A DNA stretch of 64,000 nt from Patescibacteria group bacterium (GTDB lineage Bacteria; Patescibacteriota; Doudnabacteria; UBA920). Location: NCBI GenBank assembly GCA_023484515.1, contig JAMDAY010000007.1:50179-114178 (forward strand). The letters run 5' to 3'. How positions within the stretch are numbered: the first letter of the stretch is position 1; every line of letters starts with the position of its first letter. A program made the position numbers and the translations under genes. The notes beneath the pieces are model-generated. The model saw only the letters and a program-made list of their open reading frames with translations, did not search any database and had not been told where the DNA came from. Below are positions 9,516 through 62,156 of the stretch, piece after piece.

Positions 9516-11468
9516 TTGTTATCGTGTTATCTTATGAACCTCTCTTCATTATCCAGCCAACTGAATATGTCCGTGCAGGAACTTCGCTCCAAGGCGCGCG
9601 AGAGAGGTTTTTTTATTTCGCCCAAGGCGAACAAGATAGACAACTTTTTAGCCAAGAAGATTATGGACGCGCTGGGCCAGCAGGACAGCGCACGGCTAAA
9701 ACCTGCCGCTGCAGCCGCAGAGCCGCAAAAAGTTAAGCTGCCGACTTTCATTAAAGTCAGGGATTTTGCAGATTTGTTAAAACTGCCGGTGACGGCTGTC
9801 ATTAAAGAATTGATCAAAAACGGGATAATGGCCACCATTAACGAAGAGGTGGACTTTGAAACCGCGACCATTGTGGCCCAGGACTTAGGTTTTATTGTGG
9901 AAGAAGAAGCGCAAAAAGACACGCAGGAATTCGGCCTGGGATTTTTGCAAGACGTGTTAAAATCGGAAAAAGAAGAGGACTTAAGGCTGCGCCCTCCCAT
10001 TGTGGCCATTATGGGGCACGTTGACCACGGCAAAACCACGCTTTTGGACACCATCCGCAAGACCAAGGTGGCCGAAGGGGAAAGCGGCGGCATTACCCAA
10101 CATATTGGCGCTTATCGCGTCAAAAAGAACGACAAATGGATTACGTTTTTGGACACGCCGGGCCACGAGGCCTTTAGTGAAATGCGCGCCCGCGGGGCGA
10201 ACGTGACGGACTTGATTGTGCTGGTAGTGGCGGCGGATGACGGCGTGCGGCCGCAGACTTTGGAAGTCATTAACCGCGCCAAGTTCACCAACACCCCCAT
10301 GATTGTGGCTATTAACAAAATAGACAAGCCCGAAGCCAACGTAATGAAAGCCAAGCAGGAACTGGCCGGCCAGGGAGTTTTAACCGAAGAATGGGGCGGC
10401 AAGACCGTGGCCGTGGAAATTAGCGCCAAACAGGGAATAGGCATAGACAACCTGTTGGAAATGATTTTGCTGACCGCGGAAGTGGAAAATTTTCGCGCCA
10501 ATCCCAGCGGCCGGACCGTAGGGACCATTATTGAATCTAAAGTCATGCAGGGCAAGGGGCCGACTGCCACAGTTATCGTGCAAAACGGCCACTTGCGGGT
10601 AGGGGACATTATTGTGGCCGGCGCGGCCTTTGGCCGCGTCCGCAGCCTGGAAGACGAAAAAGGACGCAGGCTGAAAGAGGCCGGGCCGTCCACTCCGGCG
10701 CAAATTTCCGGTTTCAGCGAAGTTCCCCAAGTGGGCGACATTTTGCAGACAGTAGCGGCGCTGGACGAGGCTAAAAAAATCGCTTCCGTCGCGCAAAAAA
10801 AGAACCAAAGCCACCGCCTCATTTCCAAGCAGGCTATTATGGGAGACGCGGAAAGCAAAACCCTGAATTTGATAATCAAGGCTGACGTTGCCGGCTCCCT
10901 GGAAGCCATTAAGCAATCTATTGCCAAACTTAAAAATGACGAGGTCAAAATTAACATTTTAAGCGACGGCGTGGGGGAAGTCAATGAGTCCGACGTACTT
11001 TCCGCGGACAATTCCAAGGGCATTATTATCAGTTTTAGGAGCAAAATTAATCCCAAAGCCTTGGGCCTAGCCAAACAAAAAGGCGTTGTTATTGATTCTT
11101 ACGACGTTATTTACGAATTAATAGAAGACGTGACCAGCGCCGTCATTAAAATGTTCACGCCGGAATTGGAAAAAATTGTGAACGGCCAGGCGCGGGTGTT
11201 GGCCATTTTCCGCACGGAAAAAGGGCAGATGATAGTGGGCGGCCGCTCCGAAGAAGGGATTGTAAAAAAGAACAGCCAAATTGCCATTTACCGCGACGGC
11301 ACGGAACTTGGCCGTGGCGAAATTTTAGAGCTGCAACAAAGCAAGGTGGCGGCCAAGTCCGTCAACAAAAACGAGGAATTCGGCATCAAGCTGAAAACCG
11401 CCGTAAAAATTAAGGAAGGCGACATTTTGGAGAGTTTTGAGGAGAAGATAAAGAAAAAAACATTATAA
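9516..11468 (+). CDS. infB: translation initiation factor IF-2
   Basis: GTP-binding motifs [25 protein letters not shown], then IF-2 domains. True start may be 9534 or 9567. Confidence 0.9.
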
Positions 11469-15420: not shown

Positions 15421-15438
15421 AAACCCTCCGGATTTAAC

Positions 15439-15600
15439 GGGTCTGTTGCCGAATGCCATTTTGGCTGCAATTTTAGAATTTCGGCATCTTGGCCAAAAAA
15501 TTTTTTCCCCTTAGCCTACGGCTAAACATCAAAAATTATTTTAGCCAATCTGCTCGGAATTCTGAAATTTCGCCTTAAAAGCGCATTCGGCAGCAGACCC
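15439..15600. mobile_element. 162-bp MITE-like element, copy 1 (terminal inverted repeats GGGTCTGTTGCCGAATGC / GCATTCGGCAGCAGACCC)
   Basis: Near-identical second copy at 61969-62130; internal TTAGCC-TAC-GGCTAA hairpin; TTAAC/TTAAT-like flanks. Confidence 0.7.
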
Positions 15601-15602
15601 TT

Positions 15603-15642
15603 AACGGCCGCCATTCCAATTAAAGGAATGGCGGCCGTTTTG
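15603..15642. terminator. perfect 15-bp hairpin AACGGCCGCCATTCC...GGAATGGCGGCCGTT followed by TTTTG
   Basis: Read directly, adjacent to MITE copy 1. Confidence 0.5.
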
Positions 15643-16277: not shown

Positions 16278-16362
16278 TGGTGCCCTCGGTGGGATTCGAA
16301 CCCACAAGCCTTGCGGCACATGCACCTCAAGCATGCACGTATTCCAGTTCCGTCACGAGGGC
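16278..16362 (-). tRNA. tRNA-Leu (anticodon GAG), class II with long variable arm, CCA encoded
   Basis: Manual fold: acceptor GCCCTCG/CGAGGGC, 3-bp D-stem with GG, anticodon stem CATGC/GCATG with loop TTGAGGT, variable arm GCC-GCAA-GGC, T-arm GTGGG-TTCGAAT-CCCAC. Confidence 0.85.
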
Positions 16363-16368
16363 CAAAGA

Positions 16369-17022
16369 TTAGGGATTTTCTCTATTTATTGCTAATGCAG
16401 TATACACTTTTCTGTATTTTCTTTCAAGCATCGGGTTTTTTTCATTTGCATACATCTTGGCAATAATCTTCTGCGCTTCAGATTTAGCATATTTAAGCTG
16501 ATATACCTTCGCTCCAAAACTTGTATTGAAATGCCCTTTTACTTTAAGAATAAAAAATAACCTTTTTTGTACCCACTGGAGATGCTTTAAACTAGCTGAA
16601 ATAAATTCTAAATAAAACATAAAACTGGAAGCCCAACGTTTGTCCCAATAAGAATAAAAAGTTCCATCACCGTCAAAACTGCCTCTAAGAAAATCAAAAA
16701 AATATTTATTCGGAATTTTTAGTCCCGCTATTGTTTTAGATTTTGCTGGAGTTAGCCCTATTGATAATAAAAAACTATAAAATTTAATATCGCCAAACTG
16801 TACCCAGTAAGCAGCCTTGTTTTGATCGTAACCACTATGCTTTATGGATATCTTATTTTTTATACCCAAACAATTTTTAAAAATTTTTACCAATTCCAGA
16901 TCTTTTGACACAAAGGCCATGTGCCTACCATCATTGTAAAGACACCCGTCAGTGGCGATCAAGCCTACCACATAAGCCAAATTTGAGGACCATTGAGTTT
17001 TTATTTTATTTGCAGGTCTCAT
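16369..17022 (-). CDS. LAGLIDADG homing endonuclease, double-motif single-chain type
   Basis: Two LAGLIDADG motifs (LAYVVGLIATDG and FDFLRGSFDGDG). ATG at 17022; the ORF-track start 17085 is TTG. Stop lies 6 nt before the tRNA-Leu 5' end. Confidence 0.85.
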   Translation of the reverse strand: MRPANKIKTQWSSNLAYVVGLIATDGCLYNDGRHMAFVSKDLELVKIFKNCLGIKNKISIKHSGYDQNKAAYWVQFGDIKFYSFLLSIGLTPAKSKTIAGLKIPNKYFFDFLRGSFDGDGTFYSYWDKRWASSFMFYLEFISASLKHLQWVQKRLFFILKVKGHFNTSFGAKVYQLKYAKSEAQKIIAKMYANEKNPMLERKYRKVYTALAINRENP

Positions 17023-17050
17023 TTGTCTCAATGTATAAGCGTATACCAAT

Positions 17051-17085
17051 ATTATAGCAAAACTGCGGAAAAAATCCAGAGACAA
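17051..17085 (-). promoter_or_regulatory. extended -10 (TGcTATAAT) promoter candidate for the LAGLIDADG-tRNA unit
   Basis: Read directly on the minus strand; the -35 is weak. Confidence 0.3.
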
Positions 17086-18168: not shown

Positions 18169-21100
18169 TTACTTGTTATTTATAAATTCCCTCCTGTATT
18201 CCTGCCAGGAGACTATTCCTAAATTATCCGGCTGGTTTCTTCCCAGGGCTTTAACGAACGCGCGGGCCAAATGTAGGTCAATAAACAGCGGAATCTGGTT
18301 ATCTACGGCGGCGCGCCTTATGCGGAAACCGTCATTTAAATGCCGCTTGAGCTTGTCCTGTTCCTGCCTGCCTTCATTCTGGCTCAAATTTACCACAAAA
18401 GCAATATCCTTTCCCTCAATCGCGTTTAAGACGTTAGGCTGCTGCTCGGAAACCTTCCGCACAACAGTGCAGGCCACATTCTGTTCCCGCAGATACGAAG
18501 CAGTGGTATCGGTCGCGAGAATCTCATACCCCAAGAACACTAAAGTTTGTGCGGCTTCCAAAAATTTTATCTTGTTCAGTTCACCGCCCAAAGAAAGCAG
18601 CACGCGTTTTTTGGTAAAGTCAAAACTATTGGCGGACATTATGGACTTAAGCAAAGCCTCGTCGTAAGTGCGGCCAAAACAGGCTACCTCGCCGGTAGAG
18701 GACATTTCCACCTGCAAAACCGGATCCGCTCCTGAGAGGCGGGCAAAGGAAAACTGGGGCGATTTGACTACGACCGCGGGCGGATATTCATAATTGAATT
18801 TTTTTGCCTTGCCAAAAAAACTGTCCACGGCAATGGCCGGAAAATTGGTAAACAAGGCCTTGGACAGCAAGGGAAAGGTGCGGCTGGCGCGCACATTCAC
18901 TTCTATAACAAACGGCTGGTTGTCCTTGAATAAAAATTGGATGTTGAACGGCCCGGTAATTTTCAGCTCCTTGCTGATTTTTTTCGCAATCTGGCGAAGC
19001 TGGTATTCGGTGGAAGCGTATACGCGCTGCGTCGGATAAACAATGGTCGCGTCTCCGGAATGCACGCCCGCGTTTTCCACATGCTCGGCAATGGCATAAA
19101 CCATTAACTCTCCGTTTTGGGCGACTGCGTCAAATTCCAGCTCTTTGGCGTTTTCAATAAATTTGGATACTGTTACCGGATGCCGCTGGTTTAAGTCCGC
19201 GGCTTTGCCAATGAAATCCTTTAACTGCTGGGGATTGCGGCAAACGCTCATGGCGCTGCCCGATAAAACATAAGAAGGCCGCACCAGGACCGGGTAACCA
19301 ACTTCTTCGGCAAACTGTTCCGCCTTTTCCAGGCTGGCAAAGCTCTGCCAGCGGGGCTGCAAAATGCCCAGTTTGTCCAGGAGCGCGGAAAACTTATTGC
19401 GGTCTTCGGCACGGTCAATGTTTTCCGCGCTGGTCCCTAAAATGGGAGCTTTATAAGCCGCCAGCGCATTGGCCAGGTTGTTGGGCCGCTGCCCTCCTAC
19501 CGACACCGCCACTCCGCCCGATTGCTCAAAATCTAAAATGTCTGCCACGGTTTCAAAATTCAAATCTTCAAAATACAGCCGGTCGGACATGTCGTAGTCA
19601 GTGGACACGGTTTCGGGGTTGCAGTTGATAATTATGGTTTTTTTGTCATATTTTTTTAAAGCCAAAGCCGTATTCACACATGACCAGTCAAACTCCACCG
19701 AAGATCCGATATGATAAGGCCCGCTGCCCAAGACCATGACGGATTTTTTGCCCAAAGGCTGGACATCGTGATGGTTGCCATGATAAGTCAGATACAAATA
19801 ATTGGTCTGGGCCGGCACTTCTCCCGCCAAGGTGTCAATTTGGAACACGCTCGGCAATACGCCGGCTTTTTGGCGCAGGGCGCGAATTTCCAATTCGGTT
19901 TTTCCCGTCAAAAATGCAATTCTTTTGTCCGAAAGTCCGGCTTGCTTATAGCGGCACAGGCTTTGAGGATCCAGCATTTGTGACGCCTTCAGATTTTCTT
20001 CCGTGTCCACAATATTTTTTATCCGGTACAAAAACCACAAATCAATTCCCGTTGCCTGATAGATATCCTTTACTTTTGCGCCATTTTTTAAACTTTCAGC
20101 CAGGGCAAACAAACGTTTGGGCGTCGGTATTTTTAAAAATTTTTCGGAAAATTCTTTTTTTGATAAATTTTTAATGTTAAACCCGTTTTCCGTAACGCCT
20201 TGGACGCGGCCGCTTAACATGCGGCTGGCTTTTTGTAAAGCTTCTTCAAAACTTCTGCCTATGGCCATAACTTCGCCCACGGACTTCATGGCGCTGCCGA
20301 TTTTTTCTTCCGCTCCGGAAAACTTTTCCAAATCCCAGCGCGGCATTTTAACCACCACGTAATCAAGCGCCGGCTCAAAAAAACTTTGCGTAACTTTGGT
20401 CACTTGGTTTTGCACTTTGTTTAAAGTCTTACCCAAAGCCAGCTTTGCCGCAACATAAGCCAAAGGATAGCCGGTGGCCTTGGAAGCCAAAGCCGAGGAG
20501 CGCGACAAACGCGCGTTGACCTCGATTACATAATAATCTAAACCTTGCTTGCCTGTATGTCCATGCATCCGTGTTGATCCGTCATCTTTGATCTGTGTAG
20601 ATCCGTTTGGGTTTAACGCAAATTGGACATTGCATTCGCCAACAATTCCCAAGGATTTGACGATATTTACAGACACCTCGCGCAAACCATGGTATTCGTC
20701 GCTGGTCAAGGTCTGGCTGGGCGCCACCACAATGGAATCGCCGGTGTGGATGCCCAAAGGATCCATGTTTTCCATGTTGCAGACCGTGACGCAGTTGCCT
20801 TCTTTGTCGCGCACAACTTCGTATTCAATTTCCTTAAAATGATGCAAATATTTTTCCACCAGCACCTGCGGCGACACGGCCAAGGCGCCGCTGACTATCT
20901 CATTTAATTGCTTAAGATTATAAGCCACCCCGCTCTTTTGCCCGCCCAAAGCGTAAGCCGCGCGCACCATAACCGGAAAGCCAATTTGCTTGGCTATGGC
21001 TTGCGCCTGTACCAGAGTAGCAGCCGCTCCGCTCGGCGGAACTGCCACATTAATCTTCCGGAGATGGTCCGCAAAATTTTTCCGATCCTCCGTCAAAACA

Positions 21101-21810: not shown

Positions 21811-21818
21811 TGTGTATT

Positions 21819-21902
21819 TGTAGTTAGCTGATTTATCACGGTCGTTCGCGAACGACGTGATTTATCAGCTGTTATTAACAGCCCATAAATGGGCTAACTA
21901 CA
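21819..21902. mobile_element. 'TGTAGTTAGC...GCTAACTACA' palindromic element, copy A, carrying a nested 19-nt palindromic insert flanked by a TGATTTATCA duplication
   Basis: Aligned by eye to the copies at 60129-60184 and 24204-24261. Confidence 0.65.
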
Positions 21903-21935
21903 TCTTAAATCTTAAATCCTAAATCTTAAATCTTT
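21903..21935. repeat. heptamer tandem repeat (CTTAAAT)x5 abutting the carA stop codon
   Basis: Read directly; a related TTTAGGATTTAAGATTT motif occurs at the pyrE 3' end (25484-25505). Confidence 0.6.
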
Positions 21936-23101
21936 TTAAGGAACTCATCAAACAGCCACCCGGTATCCAACGGCCCCGGATGCGCTTCGGGATGGAATTG
22001 AACGGACATAAACGGCAGTTTGTTATGGATAATGCCTTCGTTGGTCTTGTCGTTGGCGTTGTAAAACCACTGTTTAAAGCCTTTGGGAATTTTTTTAATG
22101 GCGAAACCGTGGTTCTGGGTGGTTAAATAGCATTTGTTCGTGCCCTGCAAAACACACGGCTGGTTCTGGCCGCGATGCCCATACTTTAGCTTATAAGTAT
22201 CACCATCGGCTGCTAAAGCTAGAATTTGATTGCCTAAACAAATACCAAATGTCGGGATCTTTTTGGCCAGTAGATATTTTACGTTTTCTATGGTGGTGGT
22301 TGCCTGCTTGGGGTCGCCCGGGCCGTTGGAAATTAAGGCAGCGTCAAATTTCAGTTTTTTCAAATTGTAATCCCAAGGCACTACCACGACTTTTACGTTG
22401 CGCTTGACCAATTCGCGCACAATGTTTTGCTTAAGGCCGCAGTCAATAACCACAACCGTCTTTTTGCCCGAACCCGCGCGGTAAACTTTTTTCGTGGAAA
22501 CTTTGGCGGCTAAATTTTCAAGGTTGGGGTCTTTGAATTCTGTCATTGCCAGGCCGCCTTGCCCGCCGAAGCCTTGGCGGAGGAGGGGGTTTTGTCCGGC
22601 CGACCGAAGATACGCCGAAGCCTTGGCGAAGGTGGACGAAGCAATCTTCTCCTGTGATAGATTGCTTCGCTCGGATGCACTCGCTCGCAATGACACATTA
22701 TTAAATTCCATTTTCCCCAACATGACTCCATGGGTCCGCAGCTTTTGCGTAATTTCCCTGGTATCCTTAATCTCCAAAGCAGGAATGTTTTGCTTTTTCA
22801 GCCAGTCTGACAATGTCTGTTTGCTTGAATGATGCGAAGGCGTATCTATATAGCTTGATACCACTAACCCCGAAACTTGAATTTTACCAGATTCCCAATA
22901 TTTTTTCTCCGGCACGCCATAATTGCCCTGCAGGGGATAGGTTAAAACCAAAATCTGCCCGGCATAAGAGGGATCGGTCAAGCTTTCCGGATACCCGACC
23001 ATGCCCGTGGCAAATACCACTTCGCCCGCCATGGGCTTTTCTTTGCCAAAACTTTTACCAACGTATTCGCTGCCGTCTTTTAAAATAAGGTTGCCGATCA
23101 T
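21926..23101 (-). CDS. carA: carbamoyl-phosphate synthase small subunit; the linker carries an in-frame palindromic-element insertion
   Basis: CarA N-domain plus class-I GATase (GICLGNQ, HPE) with about 45 extra low-complexity residues in the linker, encoded by the 22541-22695 element. Confidence 0.9.
   Translation of the reverse strand: MIGNLILKDGSEYVGKSFGKEKPMAGEVVFATGMVGYPESLTDPSYAGQILVLTYPLQGNYGVPEKKYWESGKIQVSGLVVSSYIDTPSHHSSKQTLSDWLKKQNIPALEIKDTREITQKLRTHGVMLGKMEFNNVSLRASASERSNLSQEKIASSTFAKASAYLRSAGQNPLLRQGFGGQGGLAMTEFKDPNLENLAAKVSTKKVYRAGSGKKTVVVIDCGLKQNIVRELVKRNVKVVVVPWDYNLKKLKFDAALISNGPGDPKQATTTIENVKYLLAKKIPTFGICLGNQILALAADGDTYKLKYGHRGQNQPCVLQGTNKCYLTTQNHGFAIKKIPKGFKQWFYNANDKTNEGIIHNKLPFMSVQFHPEAHPGPLDTGWLFDEFLKKI
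22541..22695. mobile_element. 'TGTCATTGC...GCAATGACA' palindromic element inserted in-frame in carA
   Basis: Terminal inverted repeats, internal CGAAGCAATC...GATTGCTTCG hairpin and GCCGAAGCCTTGGCG direct repeats; homologous copy in rsmI. Confidence 0.7.
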
Positions 23102-23365: not shown

Positions 23366-24655
23366 CTAATTCGTATTGTTATATACTCTGCCTCTTACAA
23401 TAGCACACTTTACTTTTCCTGGGAAGACCCTGCCGGTAAAGGGCGACCAGCCGCATTTGGTTTTTAAATTCTCCTTTTTTACAAGCCATTTTTGCGATAA
23501 ATCCAAAATTGTCAGCGACCCCGCAAAGCCCTCCTTTATTTCCCCACACCGTTCCGTGCGAAAGCTGTTTACAAAACGGCCCGGATTAAAACTGCAAATC
23601 CTGGCAATGTCTTGCGGCTCAAAATTACATTCCTTAAGCAGCCACGCGGCAAAAGCCCCGTAAGTATCCAAGTGAGGGACTCCTGACATGCCTTTTAATT
23701 TTTCTTCTGCGGTATGCGGGGCATGGTCAGTTGCCAAAAAATCTATGTCGCCTTTTCTTAAGGCCTCAATCATGGCCAAACGGTCTTCCGGTGCCCTAAG
23801 TGGCGGGTTCATTTGCAGCCACTTGCGGTTTTCTTCTGTCAGCATCGTGTCGTCAAAATACAAATGGTGAGGCGCAACTTCGCAAGCCACGTCTAAGCCT
23901 GCTTTTTTGGCACTGATAATTTTAGCCAGGCCTTCCTTAACGGAATAATGGCATAGTTTCCCGTGCAAGCGGTATTTTTCAATAAGATACAAAGCAAAAT
24001 CCGTGGCCTTAAGTTCGGCCTCGGCCGGGCGGCGCTGTTCGTGAGTCGGCTGGTTTTTGTTGGCTTCCAAAATTTCCGGATCTTCGCAATGGAAACTTAC
24101 ATATTGGCCTTCATATCGTTTAATCGCTTCTTCCAATTCCTGCTGCGAATGGAAAAACAAATCGCCGATTGACGGGCCCATAAAGGCTTTGTAAGGCGGT
24201 TGTGTTGTAATGTGCCCATTTATGGGCTGCATTGATGGCCGATAAATCGGCGCACTACAACTAAATGGCTTCGTCTTCGGTCCAATCCCCCCATACAGCG
24301 TTACGTCCACCAACGCTTTTTCGGCAAGCGCCAATTTTTCCCCGTAAGATTTTTCGTCCACCGGCGCCACGGGGTTATTGGGCATATCGCAAATATGCGT
24401 TACCCCGCCGTTTATGGCCGCCTCGGACGCGCTTAAAAAGTCTTCTTTGTAATTTTGCAAGCCCGAGACATCTTCCCGCGCATGCACGTGCAAATCTACA
24501 AACCCGGGAAATACCAGACAATCTTCGCCGCATACAATATCGGCGCTGCCCGTAGCCTCGCCAACACTTTTGATCAATCCCGTCTCCTGATTAATCTCCA
24601 CGCGCCCGTAAATTTCGCTGTCGTGGTTTATTATTTTGCCTTCAATTGATAACAT
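23366..24655 (-). CDS. pyrC: dihydroorotase
   Basis: DLHVHAR metal-binding motif and FHCED, DHAPH motifs (HxH, FHCE); 429 aa. Confidence 0.9.
   Translation of the reverse strand: MLSIEGKIINHDSEIYGRVEINQETGLIKSVGEATGSADIVCGEDCLVFPGFVDLHVHAREDVSGLQNYKEDFLSASEAAINGGVTHICDMPNNPVAPVDEKSYGEKLALAEKALVDVTLYGGIGPKTKPFSCSAPIYRPSMQPINGHITTQPPYKAFMGPSIGDLFFHSQQELEEAIKRYEGQYVSFHCEDPEILEANKNQPTHEQRRPAEAELKATDFALYLIEKYRLHGKLCHYSVKEGLAKIISAKKAGLDVACEVAPHHLYFDDTMLTEENRKWLQMNPPLRAPEDRLAMIEALRKGDIDFLATDHAPHTAEEKLKGMSGVPHLDTYGAFAAWLLKECNFEPQDIARICSFNPGRFVNSFRTERCGEIKEGFAGSLTILDLSQKWLVKKENLKTKCGWSPFTGRVFPGKVKCAIVRGRVYNNTN
24204..24261. mobile_element. divergent 'GTTGTAGTG...CACTACAAC' palindromic element lying in-frame inside pyrC
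   Basis: Same order of TIR / GATTTATC hairpin / GCCCATAAATGGGC hairpin as the 60129-60184 copy; encodes FSCSAPIYRPSMQPINGHI. Confidence 0.5.
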
Positions 24656-25470: not shown

Positions 25471-25491
25471 AAAAAAATTTAGATATAAAAT

Positions 25492-26124
25492 TTAGGATTT
25501 AAGATTTTTTGCTTCTAAATATTTTTTACCATGGCCAACTGCCGTATTAATGGGAATTCCCGAATCGCACAGCGGGCAACGGCCTTCTTCATACATAGGC
25601 ACCTCTAAAATATCCAGAGGGAAAAAAGGGGTGTTGAAATATTGGCTGTTTACTTCCCTGGTATTTTTATTTACCATCACGCACACGCCCGCAACTTGGC
25701 CGCCAATAGACCTTACAGCATCCGTGGTTTTTTTTGCGCTGCCCCCGGTCTGGGTTAAATCTTCCACCACCAAAATTTTTTTCCCGGCAACATACTTGTC
25801 GTATCCTCTGGTAAACTGCATCCCGCCTTCCGGAGTTTTTTCCGCATACACGCCAAAAATTTCCGTGCCTTTAATTTGGGAAAGATGAAACGCCACCCAT
25901 TGCGATAAAATAACCCCTCCCAAAACCGGACCCACTATTGTATCTATATCCAGATCTTTCACCGCTTCTGCCATAAGGCGGCAAACCTCGGAAGTCTCCT
26001 TGGTATGGGGGTATAAGGCATCTTTATTAATATACGTATCAAAATGCTTGCCTGAAGTTCCGACAAAATGGCTGCCTGCAATAACTGCACCGACTTGTTT
26101 TAAAATATCCAATACTTGACTCAT
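25492..26124 (-). CDS. pyrE: orotate phosphoribosyltransferase-like type I PRTase
   Basis: PRPP-binding motif ILVVEDLTQTGGS; pathway context. Confidence 0.75.
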   Translation of the reverse strand: MSQVLDILKQVGAVIAGSHFVGTSGKHFDTYINKDALYPHTKETSEVCRLMAEAVKDLDIDTIVGPVLGGVILSQWVAFHLSQIKGTEIFGVYAEKTPEGGMQFTRGYDKYVAGKKILVVEDLTQTGGSAKKTTDAVRSIGGQVAGVCVMVNKNTREVNSQYFNTPFFPLDILEVPMYEEGRCPLCDSGIPINTAVGHGKKYLEAKNLKS

Positions 26125-33653: not shown

Positions 33654-35039
33654 GTGACCACCAAAACCGCATCCAAAAAAAAGAACGGCTTCCGCAAATT
33701 CTGGCGCTTGGGCATTGAAGAATACAATACCCAAAACTTTGACATTGGCCCGGACGGGGAACTGATAGTCCGCGAAGGCAACTACCAGTACAATATTTTT
33801 GACATTGTAAAAAAATACGGGACTTCCACGGAGATTGTTTTTCCCACGGTCATTGAAAACCGCGTGCGGGACCTGATTGAAACCTTTAACGCTTACATAA
33901 AAGTACTGGGCTACCGGGGCAAGTTCCACTACCATTACGCCATGAAAGTCAACCAGAACAAGGAATTCGTGCTGCCGGCCGTGGCCGAAGGGGCAAATTT
34001 GGACGTGGCCAGCGCCAACGAATTATTCTTGGTCAAACGGATGATAGAACAGGACAAGTTTAACAACAAAATCCGCGTCATTTGCAACGGGCCCAAGACT
34101 GAAAAATATATTGGCCTGATAGAAGAGCTTAAGAGCAAGGGCCTGATTGTCGTTCCCATTATTGAAGACCATGTAGAGCTGGAGCGCTTGAAAAAATTCA
34201 AGGGCGAGGTGGGGGTGCGCGTAAATTTGGACGTAAAAGTCAACAGCCATTGGGACAAAAAATTCAACCGTTACGGGTTCACCGAGGCCGAACTGCTGCG
34301 GCTGGGCAAAATTAAGAACCTGTCCACGTTGCATTACCATATTTCCAGCCAGATTGAACGGATGGAAGGCATGCTTAAGCCGCTCAAGCGGGCGCTGGAG
34401 CTTTACGCCAAGCTGCGGGAAAAGAATCCCGGCCTGGACACCTTGGACATGGGCGGGGGAGCGGGCGTGCCTTACGAAAAACGCAAGCATTTTTATTCCG
34501 CGAAAAATTTAATCCATCACCTGGTTAAGACTGCCAAAAATACCTGCGACCGGCTGCAGGTTAGGCATCCCAACTTGATAGTGGAATGGGGCAGGTACGT
34601 GGCCGCGCCGGCGCAAATTACCATCTACAAAATACTGGCGGAAAAAACCGTGGAAAACAAAGGTAATAACAAGTGGTATGTAATTGACGGCAGCTTTATG
34701 AACGATTTGATTGACACCTGGGCCATACACCAAAAGTGGCACGTGGTGCCGGTTAATTACATGAACACGCGCAAGCTGGAAAAGGTCTGGCTGGCAGGCG
34801 CCTCCTGCGACAGCGACGACAAATATACTTCCGGCGGCGGTTACATTTTGTTGCCCAGGCTAAGCGAGACCGACGAGCTGTATGTCGCCTTTTTGGACAC
34901 CGGCGCTTACCAGGATTCCCTGGCCTCGCACCACTGCCTGCTGTCCAGCCCGGCCAAACTTATAGCCCAAAACGGGGAAATAAAAATTGCCCGCCGCCGC
35001 GAAGTCCCGGAAGAGGTGGGAAAACTTTTTGGCTGGTAA
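33654..35039 (+). CDS. speA: arginine decarboxylase-like PLP-dependent (Orn/DAP/Arg decarboxylase fold III) enzyme
   Basis: HYHYAMKVN (PLP lysine region) and C-terminal beta-sandwich; 461 aa. Confidence 0.7.
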   Translation: MTTKTASKKKNGFRKFWRLGIEEYNTQNFDIGPDGELIVREGNYQYNIFDIVKKYGTSTEIVFPTVIENRVRDLIETFNAYIKVLGYRGKFHYHYAMKVNQNKEFVLPAVAEGANLDVASANELFLVKRMIEQDKFNNKIRVICNGPKTEKYIGLIEELKSKGLIVVPIIEDHVELERLKKFKGEVGVRVNLDVKVNSHWDKKFNRYGFTEAELLRLGKIKNLSTLHYHISSQIERMEGMLKPLKRALELYAKLREKNPGLDTLDMGGGAGVPYEKRKHFYSAKNLIHHLVKTAKNTCDRLQVRHPNLIVEWGRYVAAPAQITIYKILAEKTVENKGNNKWYVIDGSFMNDLIDTWAIHQKWHVVPVNYMNTRKLEKVWLAGASCDSDDKYTSGGGYILLPRLSETDELYVAFLDTGAYQDSLASHHCLLSSPAKLIAQNGEIKIARRREVPEEVGKLFGW

Positions 35040-35743
35040 TTAACAATCTCTTAATATCATATGCGCAAAGGCTGTCTTTAACCCGGCAACGCCACCATGG
35101 GCGGGGGAGCGGGCGTGCCTTACGAAAAACGCAAGCATTTTTATTCCGCGAAAAATTTAATCCATCACCTGGTTAAGACTGCCAAAAATACCTGCGACCG
35201 GCTGCAGGTTAGGCATCCCAACTTGATAGTGGAATGGGGCAGGTACGTGGCCGCGCCGGCGCAAATTACCATCTACAAAATACTGGCGGAAAAAACCGTG
35301 GAAAACAAAGGTAATAACAAGTGGTATGTAATTGACGGCAGCTTTATGAACGATTTGATTGACACCTGGGCCATACACCAAAAGTGGCACGTGGTGCCGG
35401 TTAATTACATGAACACGCGCAAGCTGGAAAAGGTCTGGCTGGCAGGCGCCTCCTGCGACAGCGACGACAAATATACTTCCGGCGGCGGTTACATTTTGTT
35501 GCCCAGGCTAAGCGAGACCGACGAGCTGTATGTCGCCTTTTTGGACACCGGCGCTTACCAGGATTCCCTGGCCTCGCACCACTGCCTGCTGTCCAGCCCG
35601 GCCAAACTTATAGCCCAAAACGGGGAAATAAAAATTGCCCGCCGCCGCGAAGTCCCGGAAGAGGTGGGAAAACTTTTTGGCTGGTAATTAACAATCTCTT
35701 AATATCATATGCGCAAAGGCTGTCTTTAACCCGGCAACGCCAC
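34448..35743 (+). repeat. perfect tandem direct duplication, 2 x 648 bp (34448-35095 and 35096-35743), covering the speA 3' third plus the 3' UTR up to the terminator loop
   Basis: ORF-track proteins 33654..35039 (C-terminal 196 aa) and 35097..35687 are identical; the DNA is identical by eye, including the 56-nt UTR. Confidence 0.85.
35097..35687 (+). pseudogene. duplicated 3' fragment of speA (promoterless 196-aa C-terminal copy)
   Basis: Second repeat unit; starts at the internal Met of speA. Confidence 0.6.
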
Positions 35744-50715: not shown

Positions 50716-51492
50716 ATGCTTTACGTTGTCGCCACGCCCATTGGGAACTTAAAAGATATAACTTTGCGGGCCATTGAGACTTTAAAGGCCTGCGATTTTG
50801 TAATTGCGGAAAATCCGGGGTATAGCAGGAGGCTGTTGCAACACATCGCAAACACCAGTGTCATTGCGAGGCCGAATGCATCTGAGGCCGAAGCAATCTA
50901 TCCATCTGACAGTAAGATTGCTTCGCCGTCCGGCCAAAGCCCCGAACGGCTCGCAATGACATCTAAGAAAGAGATTGTCCAATTTGCGGAATTTAACGAA
51001 CAGCAGGTGGTCAAAGAATTGGCTAGACGATTAATAAAAGAAAACGGATGCCTTATCACCGACGCCGGCACGCCTGGCATTTCCGACCCCGGATTCAGGC
51101 TGGTGAGGGAATGTATAAAAAACAACATCGAGATTGTGCCAATCCCCGGCGCCAGCGCCGCAATTACCGCCTTGTCAGCAAGCGGTTTGCCCACGGACAG
51201 GTTTTTATTCCTGGGCTTTTTGCAAAAGACCGCGGCCAAAACCTTGAAAGCCTTAAAAGACGCCGAACAAGCTGAAGCCACGGCCATATTTTACGAATCC
51301 CCGGAAAGAATTTTCAAGACCATGAGTTACATTGCCAACGCCTTCCCGTCTTCCCAAGTCGTTATCGCGCGCGAACTAACCAAACTCCACGAAGAATTCA
51401 TCCGCGGCAGCGCGGGGGAAGTGCTGGAAAAGCTGAAAGAAAGAACCTCAATAAAAGGAGAATTTACAGTCCTTGTATCATTTAAAAATTAA
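50716..51492 (+). CDS. rsmI: 16S rRNA (cytidine1402-2'-O)-methyltransferase RsmI carrying an in-frame palindromic-element insertion
   Basis: MLYVVATPIGNLKDITLRAIETL N-terminus and DAGTPGISDPGFRLV motif; about 37 extra residues between LLQH and NEQQ encoded by the 50859-50961 element. Confidence 0.8.
   Translation: MLYVVATPIGNLKDITLRAIETLKACDFVIAENPGYSRRLLQHIANTSVIARPNASEAEAIYPSDSKIASPSGQSPERLAMTSKKEIVQFAEFNEQQVVKELARRLIKENGCLITDAGTPGISDPGFRLVRECIKNNIEIVPIPGASAAITALSASGLPTDRFLFLGFLQKTAAKTLKALKDAEQAEATAIFYESPERIFKTMSYIANAFPSSQVVIARELTKLHEEFIRGSAGEVLEKLKERTSIKGEFTVLVSFKN
50859..50961. mobile_element. 'TGTCATTGC...GCAATGACA' palindromic element inserted in-frame in rsmI
   Basis: Shares TIRs, the CGAAGCAATC/GATTGCTTCG inner hairpin and GTCCGGCC with the carA copy; same orientation relative to the host reading frame. 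Confidence 0.7.
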
Positions 51493-57791: not shown

Positions 57792-59141
57792 TTGAATAAT
57801 CTTTCTCATCAGCCAGGCATAATCCGTCCAGCTTATTCCGCAAAAATCAAAAATTTATTTATAATTGAAATTTGCGTCCCAATGCCTTACCTTCTTGCTC
57901 TCACCTTCCTCCTGACTCCCGCTTATGCCGTAAAATTCCAACTTTTGGGCTTTCCGACCAACCTTCTTATGGCCTGGGTGGTTTTGGTTTGGCTGACTTT
58001 TGCCATTTGGTTGATTGTAAAAAAACAGGTTTTACCGTTTTGGAGCTCCATAGCCATGTTTGATAAAAAATTGTTAGCGCTGGTTGGTTTGTTCTTCTTA
58101 GCGGGATTAGTTTCGTTATTCGCTCATGGCTTTGATCGCGCAAAGCTTGGCCAGTTTATTGTCTTATTCCTGCAGCCGATTTCCTTATTTTTTATTGGCC
58201 GATATTTAATTTCACAATTCCCTAAAACCCGTAACTTGTTAATAACTACATGTTATTTGTTGCTGGGCGCAATGGGCATATATGCCGTAATCCAATATTT
58301 TACGCTGGTCGGCCTGCCGCCAGCCTGGTGGGGCAACAGCGAAGAGCCAAAACGGGCCTTGGGATTTTTTGGCCACCCGAATTTTTACGCGTTATTTTCC
58401 ACCCCTCTACTTGCGTTCCTGATTCCTGATGTAGTTGCCCGATTTATCGGGCTCCCAAGCTCCATAAATGGAGCAACTACAAAATCCAGATGGATATTTA
58501 TTACGGCTTGGATTATTGGTGCCACCGGTTTGTTTCTCTCCCTCTCCCGCGCCGGCTGGCTAGGCCTTGGCATGGCAATTCTGGCTTATTTGATTTTTGC
58601 CGCAAATGCAAAAATCCGGCGCCTGGTTACCGTTATAGTTATTGTTATGGTAACTGTTGTTACTACCGTTTCCAACCTTCGCTATCGCGTTGTTTTGCCG
58701 TTTTATGGGGAAAAATCCGCAGTTTCGCGGCTGTCGCTTTGGGAAACAGGCTGGAAAGGTATTAAAGAATCGCCGCTTACCGGTTTGGGCTTAACCGGCT
58801 TTGCGCGACAGTGGCAGATATTAAACACCGATCCCGGCCTGGCCAGCGCTTCTCACAATTTCCCCCACAATATCTTTTTGGATTTATGGGTGGAAACGGG
58901 TCTGCTCGGGCTGATCAGTTTTGTCGGATTAATTTTTATCTACATCTATCGCGGCCTGCGCAATGCCAATCGCCAGCCTGCCTCGCCTGACGCGAGTCAA
59001 GGCAGGTCGTTAAACGTTAATTGTTACGGATTATCCGTTGCCCTTTTCCTCATCGCCTTAATATTCGCCGGCCTCGTGGACAACCCCTACTTCAAAAACG
59101 ATCTTGCCATGGTTTTCTGGTTAGTGCTTTCCCTGGTATGA
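57792..59141 (+). CDS. O-antigen ligase/polymerase (Wzy_C) family membrane protein
   Basis: Polytopic protein with a large periplasmic loop and RAGWLGLGMAILAYL region typical of Wzy_C. Confidence 0.6.
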   Translation: MNNLSHQPGIIRPAYSAKIKNLFIIEICVPMPYLLALTFLLTPAYAVKFQLLGFPTNLLMAWVVLVWLTFAIWLIVKKQVLPFWSSIAMFDKKLLALVGLFFLAGLVSLFAHGFDRAKLGQFIVLFLQPISLFFIGRYLISQFPKTRNLLITTCYLLLGAMGIYAVIQYFTLVGLPPAWWGNSEEPKRALGFFGHPNFYALFSTPLLAFLIPDVVARFIGLPSSINGATTKSRWIFITAWIIGATGLFLSLSRAGWLGLGMAILAYLIFAANAKIRRLVTVIVIVMVTVVTTVSNLRYRVVLPFYGEKSAVSRLSLWETGWKGIKESPLTGLGLTGFARQWQILNTDPGLASASHNFPHNIFLDLWVETGLLGLISFVGLIFIYIYRGLRNANRQPASPDASQGRSLNVNCYGLSVALFLIALIFAGLVDNPYFKNDLAMVFWLVLSLV

Positions 59142-59927: not shown

Positions 59928-60128
59928 TCCTCCTTCTCCTTTCGCGTATCCCCGCCGGGTGTTTTTGTTTTAACGGAGAAGAATAGCAAAAAATAGATAT
60001 ATTGACAATTGAATTCCACTTATAATATAATATATTTAGCCTTAAGTAAGGCTTTTTTATTTCTTTTGATTAGATTTGTCAGAATAGGTTGACACTTGTT
60101 CGCTGACAAATCGACACGCTACAATAGT

Positions 60129-60184
60129 TGTAGTTAGCCCATTTATGGGCTGTCCTTTAACAGCTGATAAATCAGCTAACTACA
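60129..60184. mobile_element. 'TGTAGTTAGC...GCTAACTACA' palindromic element, canonical 56-bp copy B
   Basis: TIRs plus two perfect sub-hairpins (GCCCATTTATGGGC and AGCTGATAAATCAGCT). Confidence 0.7.
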
Positions 60185-60293
60185 ATTACTGCACCCTCTC
60201 TGTCACCCGAAGGGTGACATCTCCCCTAAGGGGGAGGGTTCCGCAGTTTCCGCGATCCGTGTTCATCCGTAATCTATCCGTATTAATCATCCA

Positions 60294-61093: not shown

Positions 61094-61967
61094 ATGCATA
61101 TTCCGATAAAAAAACTTAAAAACGGGTTTGAGATGCCGGGGTTTGGTATGGGAACTTATAAAATGGGAGAAGAAAACCGGGATCAAGACGATATAAACAC
61201 CATTAAAGCCGCAATTGATTTAGGCATTACCCATATTGACACCGCAGAGGCCTATGCTGACGGCAGTGCCGAAGAAATAGTCGGCAAGGCCATAAAAGGC
61301 CGCGTGCGTTCAGGCCTGTTCATTGTTTCCAAGGTCCAGGAAAGCCATTTAAATTACCAAGAAACCAAAACCGCTTTGCACCGCGTTTAAAAAGATTAGA
61401 AACCGGCTATCTTGACTTATACCTATTGCATCGCTATCCAGGCAGCGACAGCAAGCTGAAAGAATGCTTAAAAGCACTGGCAGAATTAAAAGACGAAAAC
61501 CTCATAAAAAATATTGGAATCAGCAACTTTAACCTGGAACATACCAAGCAGGCCTGCGAATGGTCCAAATACCCGGTGGTTGCTACCCAAGTCCACTACA
61601 ACTTGCAATTCCGCGAACCTGAAAAAACCGATTTGCTGGATTTTTGCCAAAATAATGACATAATGTTAATCGCCTGGCGGCCTGTAAATAAAGCATATCA
61701 AGCAAAAAATAAAATCAACTTCACCAAACCGGGTATTCCCGTTTTGGATGAAATTAGCAAAGAATATAAAAAGCCCCCTCCCAGGTTGCCATCAACTGGC
61801 TTATTTCGCAACCGAATGTGGTGACTTTAGTTAAAACCTCTAATCTTAATCATTTACGGGAAAATCTGGGAGCTATTGGCTGGCAAATGAGCGCTGGCGA
61901 TATAGAAAAAATACGAAAGGGATTTCCAAACCAGCAGCCTGTTTCAGATACCGTGCCTTTAGCTTAA
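61094..61967 (+). pseudogene. aldo-keto reductase gene with two -1 frameshifts, both in homopolymers (near 61383-61388 in a T/A run; near 61787-61792 in a C5 run)
   Basis: Three frames each carry consecutive AKR segments, including TALHRV|LKRLETGYLDLYLLH and EYKKP|PAQVAINWLISQPNVV...; AAGGAGG RBS. Confidence 0.7.
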
Positions 61968-61968
61968 T

Positions 61969-62130
61969 GGGTCTGTTGCCGAATGCTATTTTGGCTGCAA
62001 TTTTAGAATTTCGGCATCTTGGCCAAAAAATTTTTTCTTCTTAGCCTGCGGCTAAACATCAAAAATTATTTTGACCAAGCTGCTCGGAATTCTGAAATTT
62101 CGCCTTAAAAGCGCATTCGGCAGCAGACCC
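61969..62130. mobile_element. 162-bp MITE-like element, copy 2
   Basis: About 95% identical by eye to 15439-15600; starts 1 nt after the AKR stop codon within the GCTTAATGGG context. Confidence 0.7.
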
Positions 62131-62156
62131 TTAACGCACTATTTACTTTTATTATC

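Follow-up and report, generated by a model that had tools for sequence, protein, structure and literature searches.

Why would the coding sequence of a biosynthetic enzyme contain a palindromic repeat that also lies between genes? This question is raised by pyrC, the essential pyrimidine gene for dihydroorotase in a 64,000-nt stretch of contig JAMDAY010000007.1 (positions 50,179 to 114,178; assembly GCA_023484515.1, Patescibacteria group bacterium, Doudnabacteria), hereafter called the window. An initial annotation, made from the letters alone, had proposed that positions 24204-24261 are a diverged copy of a palindromic element found near 60129, and that this copy is read in-frame as part of PyrC. 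Herein, we confirm that the segment is a true copy of this repeat, termed the TGTAG family. We consider it probable that it is a small, non-autonomous, GTAG-tagged repeat of the repetitive extragenic palindromic (REP) type, built as a REPIN-like doublet, read in-frame and tolerated in a loop of the enzyme.

Members of the family share one layout, namely TGTAG, a short arm, a CCCATTTATGGG hairpin, a spacer, a CGATAAATCG hairpin, a short arm, and CTACA. On the + strand the pyrC copy has the same orientation and module order as the copy at 60127 (Table 1), and the sequence quoted in the initial annotation is its reverse complement. Local alignment of the pyrC copy gives scores of 52, 41, and 36 against the copies at 60127, 58428, and 21815, respectively, whereas dinucleotide shuffles score 12-13 ± 2 and none out of 2000 reaches these values. 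A profile hidden Markov model (HMM) built from 89 unique copies, all from genomes other than the window's, matches positions 24205-24260 with E = 2.9e-14 when the 64-kb window is searched. The single-stranded DNA fold of the copy also beats its shuffles (z = -3.7 and -4.2). Profile, shuffle test, and module order thus agree on the proposed kinship with the element near 60129, and the intact 429-aa open reading frame (ORF) that reads through the segment bears out its in-frame position.

The host gene encodes a dihydroorotase. Its best NCBIfam model is TIGR00857 (270 bits, cut-off 279), its Pfam match is Amidohydro_1 (PF01979), and six residues presumed to bind the metals (H56, H58, K156, H189, H236, and D310) are invariant in 120 homologues. 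The AlphaFold2 model (mean predicted local distance difference test, pLDDT, 94.5; predicted template modelling score, pTM, 0.93) superposes on the closest solved structure, the M. jannaschii enzyme 7uof, at a template modelling (TM) score of 0.84. The protein is 100% identical to one from a Patescibacteria metagenome-assembled genome (MAG), and its gene lies in an operon with the order pyrD-pyrE-pyrF-pyrC-carA-carB-pyrB.

Read on the minus strand, the element corresponds to S132-T151 of PyrC, inside ...GIGPKTKPFSCSAPIYRPSMQPINGHITTQPPYKAFMG...; the frame is kept, no stop codon occurs in it, and the stretch equivalent to TGTAG..CTACA measures 54 nt, or 18 codons. The stretch between G125 and K156 has 31 residues in the window and 13 in 111 of the 120 homologues. 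The annotation had estimated about 12 additional residues compared with Bacillus: the stretch is indeed longer, but the excess is 18-19 residues when measured against the closest orthologues. Within the model, the pLDDT block means drop to 62 at residues 131-140 and 46 at 141-150 (residues 143-149 lie below 50), while all other 10-residue blocks reach at least 87, except for the short last block at the C-terminus (86). In the model the insert forms a coil that links strands 122-124 and 155-158, and only two residues (Q152 and P153) separate its end from the invariant P154-Y155-K156. It is thus predicted to be a disordered surface loop of about 18-19 residues on an otherwise intact dihydroorotase.

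The insert is derived in the window's lineage, because the site is empty in most homologues and in the syntenic contigs L123 and L124, and because of the placement of the protein in a tree. These two contigs, which have the window's gene order (in L124 including a LAGLIDADG ORF after pyrB), encode the closest relatives (P0002 and P0003, 76% identity in the alignment). Their PyrC site is empty (PL-S-xx-VPYK), and the protein has 410 aa instead of the 429 aa in the window. A neighbour-joining tree made without the insert columns groups the window with the empty-site proteins P0002, P0003, P0005, and P0006. Six other PyrC proteins (P0102, P0015, P0110, P0040, P0089, and P0119) form a clade of their own, in which the element is present throughout and at the same position. 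The DNA of three members could be compared. In L001 the element stands in the window's orientation (CCGATTTATCGG...CCCATAAATGGG), while in L003 and L083 the core is reversed relative to the window and the outer arms are unchanged, so that the peptide reads PIYR..PING or PIYG..PINR depending on orientation. These opposite orientations would fit either a core that was flipped in place between its inverted arms or an insertion that happened more than once. PyrC also has a second site, after HHLYFD, which is occupied in L083 and by a decayed copy in P0089, and TGTAG copies occur at the pyrC-carA and carA-carB junctions in several genomes.

Two loci deserve a separate word. L130 (19298-20611), a relative of L001, has no TGTAG element at the first PyrC site and instead contains a perfect 36-nt palindrome, GTACTATATAAATCACGG|CCGTGATTTATATAGTAC; this pyrC owes its stop codon TAG to a TGTAG copy in the pyrC-carA spacer, whose GTAG tag provides it. 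In the L003 pyrC copy, a different 24-nt hairpin is nested in the CCCATTTATGGG loop (L003 8330-8360).

Could the extra residues be a selected feature of PyrC, for example a protein interaction loop, with the likeness to the repeat being secondary? Seven PyrC proteins with a similar peptide at the same site would fit such a loop, yet the peptide is not conserved in PyrC from unrelated bacteria. It is confined to a few Patescibacteria proteins whose genes have TGTAG-family DNA there, in one orientation or the other, and it is missing from the 111 homologues with the short stretch. Moreover, the same DNA is found between genes and in unrelated genes, where two reading frames are used, and in other lineages (P0004, P0010, and L130) this PyrC loop has taken up four inserts that have no relation to the element. 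Together with the disorder of the coil in the model, this makes a selected PyrC loop very improbable.

How the copy reached the window's lineage is a question of its own. Transposition into a preferred site is possible; alternatively, homologous recombination with a pyrC fragment of a distantly related Patescibacterium in which the element was already present may have brought it in, along with a few dozen adjoining bases, as a gene-conversion patch. Although the window belongs to the empty-site PyrC clade, its flanks (PF...QPPYK) and the spacer peptide RPS match P0089 and P0119, and flanks plus spacer (PF-S-CS.PIYRPS..PING..T-QPPYK) are nearly those of P0089, a member of the distant clade. In 15-codon segments across residues 119-161, nucleotide identity is 0.67-0.70 to the element-bearing clade compared with 0.53-0.58 to its own clade; over the rest of pyrC its own clade is mostly ahead by 0.1-0.3, so the excess peaks around the insert. 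The arms of the pyrC copy, too, are of the type found in Doudnabacteria pyrC copies and differ from those of the intergenic copies in the window's genome. On the other hand, the putative tract is short (about 15 shared codons), other small pyrC segments likewise favour the distant clade, and the base of the loop may have been remodelled convergently. The pattern suggests a short recombination patch, which we regard as a serious possibility, somewhat short of an even chance.

The window contains four copies and one remnant, and other MAGs have several loci each. Half of the four copies are intragenic, the second being in an ORF whose product is a membrane protein of the Wzy_C type, similar to O-antigen ligases. 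The window has seven hairpins with an ATTTAT core and at least 3 bp of stem, and all lie within the four elements; six have the GTAG tag, and the seventh, in the pyrC copy, reads GTAA. As single-stranded DNA, every copy beats its shuffles in folding (z = -3.7 to -7.6), either into a single long hairpin or into an outer stem bearing two small hairpins. The copy between carA and carB is itself broken at 21838-21866, where a CGTC-tagged palindrome of 19 nt (cgtcgttcgcgaacgaccg) lies inside the GATAAATC hairpin, and the nested piece also includes a 10-nt duplication of tgataaatca. Hairpin loops themselves may be insertion targets.

Table 1. Coordinates of the TGTAG-family copies, their host genes, and associated features (window positions unless a locus is named)
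Feature	Position	Strand	Basis or remark
pyrC (dihydroorotase), 429 aa, intact, host of the element	23366..24655	-	TIGR00857, PF01979, 7uof fold
pyrC copy, TGTAG-family palindromic element (REP doublet)	24204..24261	+	sequence, profile match, shuffle test, fold
pyrC copy, left arm GTTGTAATGT	24204..24213	+	degenerate tag GTAA instead of canonical GTAG
pyrC copy, hairpin 1 GCCCATTTATGGGC	24214..24227	+	exact match; coding strand gives P-I-N-G
pyrC copy, variable spacer TGCATTGATG	24228..24237	+	
pyrC copy, hairpin 2 GCCGATAAATCGGC	24238..24251	+	coding strand gives P-I-Y-R
pyrC copy, right arm GCACTACAAC	24252..24261	+	canonical GTAG tag on reverse complement
pyrC element peptide ...PFSCSAPIYRPSMQPINGHITTQPPYK...			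minus-strand translation
Peptide stretch SCSAPIYRPSMQPINGHITT, PyrC insert	24204-24261		
Reference copy, intergenic, GTTGTAGTTAGCCCATTTATGGGC...GCTGATAAATCAGCTAACTACAAT	60127..60186	+	profile E = 1.4e-14; fold z = -7.2
Degenerate half-unit beside reference copy	60087..60125	+	nhmmer E = 0.005, model positions 32-58; weak evidence
Intergenic copy, carA stop to carB start, nested 29-nt piece inside	21815..21904	-	E = 8.8e-11 plus second fragment; fold z = -7.6
Fourth copy, GTAGTTGC subfamily, in-frame in ORF 57792..59141 (+), encodes DVVARFIGLPSSINGATTK	58428..58483	-	E = 5.5e-12
In-frame copy in DnaE	L026, L108		site shared by both; assigned by sequence
In-frame copy in ArgS	L032, L033, L101		site shared by all three; assigned by sequence
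In-frame copy in AtpG	L018		assigned by sequence
In-frame copy in GuaA	L038		assigned by sequence
In-frame copy in PurL	L094		assigned by sequence
In-frame copy in malic enzyme	L044		assigned by sequence
In-frame copy in sugar kinase	L042		assigned by sequence
In-frame copy in glycosyltransferase	L050		assigned by sequence
In-frame copy in RimK-like ligase	L022		assigned by sequence
In-frame copies in Wzy-like protein	L045		two copies; assigned by sequence
In-frame copies in PyrC	L083		two copies; assigned by sequence
RAYT-associated palindromes	L001 3739-3765, 3838-3862, 4571-4597		
RAYT-associated palindromes	L128, L129, L130 around 10001-10700		

To see how widespread the doublet is, a pattern consisting of the two hairpin cores only was run on a species-representative genome collection. 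At least 118 stretches in more than 12 phyla match it, often at several loci per genome. The hosts include Doudnabacteria, Saccharibacteria, and other Patescibacteria, as well as Deltaproteobacteria, Planctomycetes, Brocadiales, Chlamydiae, Elusimicrobia, Nitrospirae, Actinomycetota, and Firestonebacteria. Nearly all matches read (T)GTAG, 3-4 variable bases, CCCATTTATGGG, a spacer of 4-30 nt, (C/T)GATAAATC(G/A), 3-4 variable bases, and CTAC(A), and the full GTAG...CTAC pattern is present in 95 unique external doublets. The unit is thus a GTAG tag followed by 2-4 nt and a perfect 5-6-bp stem with a 4-nt loop. Two such units are joined in inverted order with the tags outward, their cores (CCCATTTATGGG and CGATTTATCG) having stems that are one base pair apart, and the doublet spans 42-68 nt from GTAG to CTAC. 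All 105 doublets with a CC-type unit have a CG- or TG-type unit as partner, in a sample that was ascertained with the heterodimer pattern; the invariance of the cores is likewise due in part to that pattern.

Several features beyond the cores fixed by the search recur across loci. The TGTAG and CTACA ends do so, with the 5' T in 78% and the 3' A in 77% of copies, and the flanks are otherwise unconserved. The outer arms covary (TTG/CAA, CGT/ACG, TCG/CGA, TGA/TCA, and CTG/CAG), being the same within a genome and different between lineages, and the spacers differ among copies in length and sequence. When the copies of one Chlamydiae MAG are aligned, their similarity is bounded by tTGTAG and CTACa, and in two Deltaproteobacteria MAGs the doublet lies within a longer palindrome (about 105 nt) whose versions at different loci share 91-99% identity. 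Near-identical copies within single genomes were found as well. Among the aligned external copies, no target-site duplication or target motif was seen beyond the T at -1 and the A at +1. Rfam has no matching family: searches with the window at the gathering threshold and with the reference copy by E-value returned only tRNAs and sub-threshold look-alikes of miRNA hairpins. The core sequences had no match in the searchable literature or in the supplementary files of PMC3733652. Spread by phages was considered and rejected, with a single match in 2.9 million viral contigs.

The position of the copies relative to genes sets Patescibacteria apart. There, 14 of the 32 external copies (44%) lie in-frame in long ORFs, compared with 0 of 69 in other phyla (Fisher P = 9e-9); the host genes are listed in Table 1. 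Two reading frames are used, giving ..PIY(G/R)..PIN(R/G)H.T.. and ..VV.PFMG..ADKSA.Y.., and the third is shut by the TAG within the GTAG tag. The use of two frames in different genes argues against a function of the peptide. A rule by which the intragenic stretch from TGTAG to CTACA would always be a multiple of three was rejected, since the GTAG..CTAC length modulo 3 is mixed; the flanks must therefore have been adjusted.

One might ask whether these residues reach the protein at all, given that a stable hairpin forms in the pyrC mRNA and that the element might be removed at the RNA level or skipped by ribosomal bypass. Excision would make frame preservation needless, yet every intragenic copy keeps the frame and avoids those with TAG or TAA. 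Genes split out of frame, the expected sign of RNA excision, were not found: the four tightly flanked Patescibacteria copies that were checked lie between distinct genes (PurL/PurQ, Nudix/SerRS, two glycosyltransferases, and a PilN/PilO-like pair). We regard removal or bypass as the least credible of the explanations considered here.

A harder question is whether the nucleic acid itself, rather than the peptide, is under selection. Between the window and L001, the PyrC proteins are 62% identical and third codon positions 47% identical, whereas all eight third positions in the hairpins agree (P about 0.002), as do 13 of 17 across the element (P about 0.013). Selection on structure could account for this, but so could a recent transfer or gene conversion by other copies. 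REP elements and bacterial interspersed mosaic elements (BIME) bind gyrase, IHF, or Pol I or stabilise mRNA, and the TGTAG element might similarly be kept as a structured DNA or RNA module that is bound by a conserved host protein and affects expression of the pyr operon. The recurrence of the two hairpin cores over many phyla with covarying arms would fit this, as would the conservation of synonymous hairpin sites between pyrC copies of diverged genomes, the strict heterodimer found in the sample, and the further copies at the pyrC-carA and carA-carB junctions. However, the core invariance is partly a product of the search pattern, the host genes are functionally unrelated, decay has set in at some intragenic copies (site 2 of P0089 and site 1 of L083), the closest relatives live without the pyrC element, and Rfam is silent. 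We deem retention for such a function unlikely. A functional reading drawn from hairpin third-position identity and cross-phylum constancy of the cores seems to us unlikely or slightly worse, and so, with a similarly low standing, does the broader idea of a structured module shared across phyla whose two hairpins are read by a conserved protein, be it a new mobilisation enzyme or a host factor. If true, selection on nucleic-acid structure would persist within coding sequence, and Patescibacteria pyrC, dnaE, and argS would hold a second, overlapping code.

Which known repeats does the doublet resemble most? REP elements (Nunvar et al. 2010, PMC2817692) with a GTAG tag are known as dimers, heterodimers, and intragenic copies (Di Nocera et al. 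2013, PMC3733652), a study that gives in-frame cases for Opitutus terrae and Rickettsia conorii, among others. Inverted REP doublets correspond to the REPIN concept (Bertels and Rainey 2011, PMC3116915), and a perfect palindrome with GTAG is one of two substrate classes of TnpA-REP (PMC8266576). The TGTAG family shares with these the tag followed by a short perfect stem-loop in a short (20-40 bp) unit, the inverted units with tags outside (an 'HH' dimer) and unlike stems (a heterodimer), and a spacer-containing doublet that folds into a long hairpin or Y shape. Its copies may likewise be dispersed in large numbers per genome, and they often adjoin stop codons or, as in L130, provide the TAG stop. 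It differs in that no cognate REP-associated tyrosine transposase (RAYT) flanked by its units was found in the window or beside 154 copies, and in that the extragenic rule, obeyed in the other phyla, is broken in Patescibacteria. In short, the doublet is a new family of the known REP/REPIN-like kind.

In its behaviour, on the other hand, it is like the Rickettsia palindromic elements (RPE), which were reportedly described by Ogata et al. in 2000. In both cases, the host is a host-dependent bacterium with a small genome, and a palindromic repeat that has no known mobilising mechanism lies in-frame in many of its housekeeping genes, where surface loops tolerate the translated residues. PyrC fits this picture, with an in-frame insert that is missing from orthologues and a surface loop that is compatible with the dihydroorotase fold (coil in the AlphaFold2 model). 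The likeness is one of behaviour. The host phylum is another, RPE-4 and RPE-6 are CGTC-tagged, and RPE-1 is longer (about 100-150 bp). RPE-1, RPE-4, and RPE-6 are discussed in PMC3733652.

Two further classes are less close. Intragenic MITEs (miniature inverted-repeat transposable elements) of bacteria, such as the enterobacterial RU/ERIC elements (PMC2759123; reviewed in PMC10969869), are also short, non-autonomous, and bounded by inverted repeats, and at times add peptides to proteins. However, MITEs derive from insertion sequences (IS) of the DDE type and have target-site duplications, whereas the TGTAG copies show none and end in the REP-typical GTAG. Palindrome-associated elements derived from IS200/IS605 are processed as single-stranded DNA hairpins by Y1 HUH transposases (PMC6006769, PMC8266576). 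Subterminal hairpins at both ends and the lack of target duplication are shared with these and make a single-strand mechanism plausible, but the TGTAG copies have neither an associated tnpA/tnpB nor a conserved 5' target tetranucleotide.

Taken as a REP-type passenger, the pyrC copy would be selfish or neutral DNA that owes its survival to a filter by selection, which spares an insertion only if it keeps the frame and lies in a permissive loop, and Patescibacteria, with their compact genomes, would often tolerate such insertions. In the weakest step of this scheme, a HUH/Y1 (RAYT-type) transposase acting in trans would cut and join the copies as single-stranded hairpins and so spread the family, and the window's lineage would have received its copy by such an insertion or within a short stretch of pyrC gained from a relative by recombination.

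Critically speaking, several observations weigh against this reading. No Y1/HUH-like ORF was detected in the 64-kb window by tblastn and motif scans, and only two RAYT-like genes occur in the roughly 1 Mb around 154 copies. Including three Patescibacteria loci that were fetched deliberately, five such genes are at hand (L001, L031, L128, L129, and L130), and all are flanked by other palindromes instead of TGTAG units; a RAYT flanked by TGTAG units (a REPtron) was found neither in the window nor beside the 154 copies, although a cognate gene may lie elsewhere in the genomes. No gene is recurrently adjacent to the copies, the clustered neighbouring ORFs belonging to paralogue-rich families only. 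In addition, REP families are usually lineage-specific, whereas this one keeps its two cores in more than 12 phyla. The flanks of the pyrC copy resemble the distant PyrC clade, which recombination would fit better than local transposition, and the complete synonymous identity of the hairpins between the window and L001 is not predicted for a purely neutral passenger.

Some observations concern the candidate enzymes and neighbours themselves. One neighbour cluster with six loci was discarded, being a merged ORF plus glycosyltransferases, and genes between paired copies have none in common. The RAYT-like (Y1_Tnp) genes of Patescibacteria are bracketed by their own lineage-specific palindromes, e.g., GATGGGAGTCTTCCAGAAGACTCCCATC (Table 1), and look like REPtrons of another repeat family; the RAYT-like protein has 2557 homologues in the protein collection.

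The same operon contains other inserts. The initial annotation had suggested that pyrC may be a third essential pyrimidine gene with an in-frame palindromic element, and this remark holds: compared with L123 and L124, carA and carB have inserts of about 50 aa and 16 aa, respectively, and both come from other repeat families. The one in carA (22544-22696, minus strand; SLRASASERSNLSQEKIASS...GLAMTEF) is in-frame and missing from the syntenic L123 and L124, and L001, L125, and L004 have related inserts at this position of carA. At the DNA level it is another palindromic element, bounded by TGTCATTGCGAG...GCAATGACA; a similar pair of ends lies at 50859-50961 (50859-50874 and 50946-50961). The peptide signature ..RSA..DEAI..EKIASS...LLAMT.. 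recurs as an in-frame insert in AtpG of L018, at the second PyrC site of L001, and in the window's carA, which suggests that the TGTCATTGCGAG family is also widespread inside Patescibacteria genes. The insert in carB (about 20523-20606, minus strand), recognised by comparison with L123, L124, and L125, shares the motif ACGGATnAACACGGAT with the intergenic stretch 60254-60270 beside the 60127 element (three matches compared with 0.03 expected).

The remaining observations are listed for completeness. LAGLIDADG-type ORFs follow pyrB in the window (16369-17085, adjoining tRNA-Leu at 16278-16362) and in L124 (15403-16056), and a gene of the 23S_rRNA_IVP family lies in the pyrC-carA interval of L003 and L004. 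AT-rich tracts of the TAAATCT type, mutually inverted, are found after carA (21902-21936) and in the pyrE-pyrF spacer (25471-25507), with similar atattaagatatt tracts around the pyrC-carA spacer of L003. The window further contains an exact 300-nt direct repeat (34448-34747 and 35096-35395, 648 nt apart) and a 173-nt repeat with 95% identity (15434-15606 and 61964-62136, 46.5 kb apart).

What, then, does a palindromic repeat inside pyrC tell us? Apparently selfish DNA inside coding genes, for which Rickettsia and a small number of REP-rich bacteria have been the main examples, is now also found in Patescibacteria (the candidate phyla radiation, CPR), another small-genome, host-dependent lineage, where nearly half of the sampled copies lie in-frame in core genes. 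Such inserts inflate or distort protein alignments, HMM scores, and phylogenies of CPR bacteria, with the window's PyrC itself falling just below the NCBIfam cut-off. The repeat family is also a natural marker of permissive loops in essential enzymes. Finally, as a REP-like repeat with no known transposase that is unusually conserved across phyla, it offers a clean target for studying how REP elements move.

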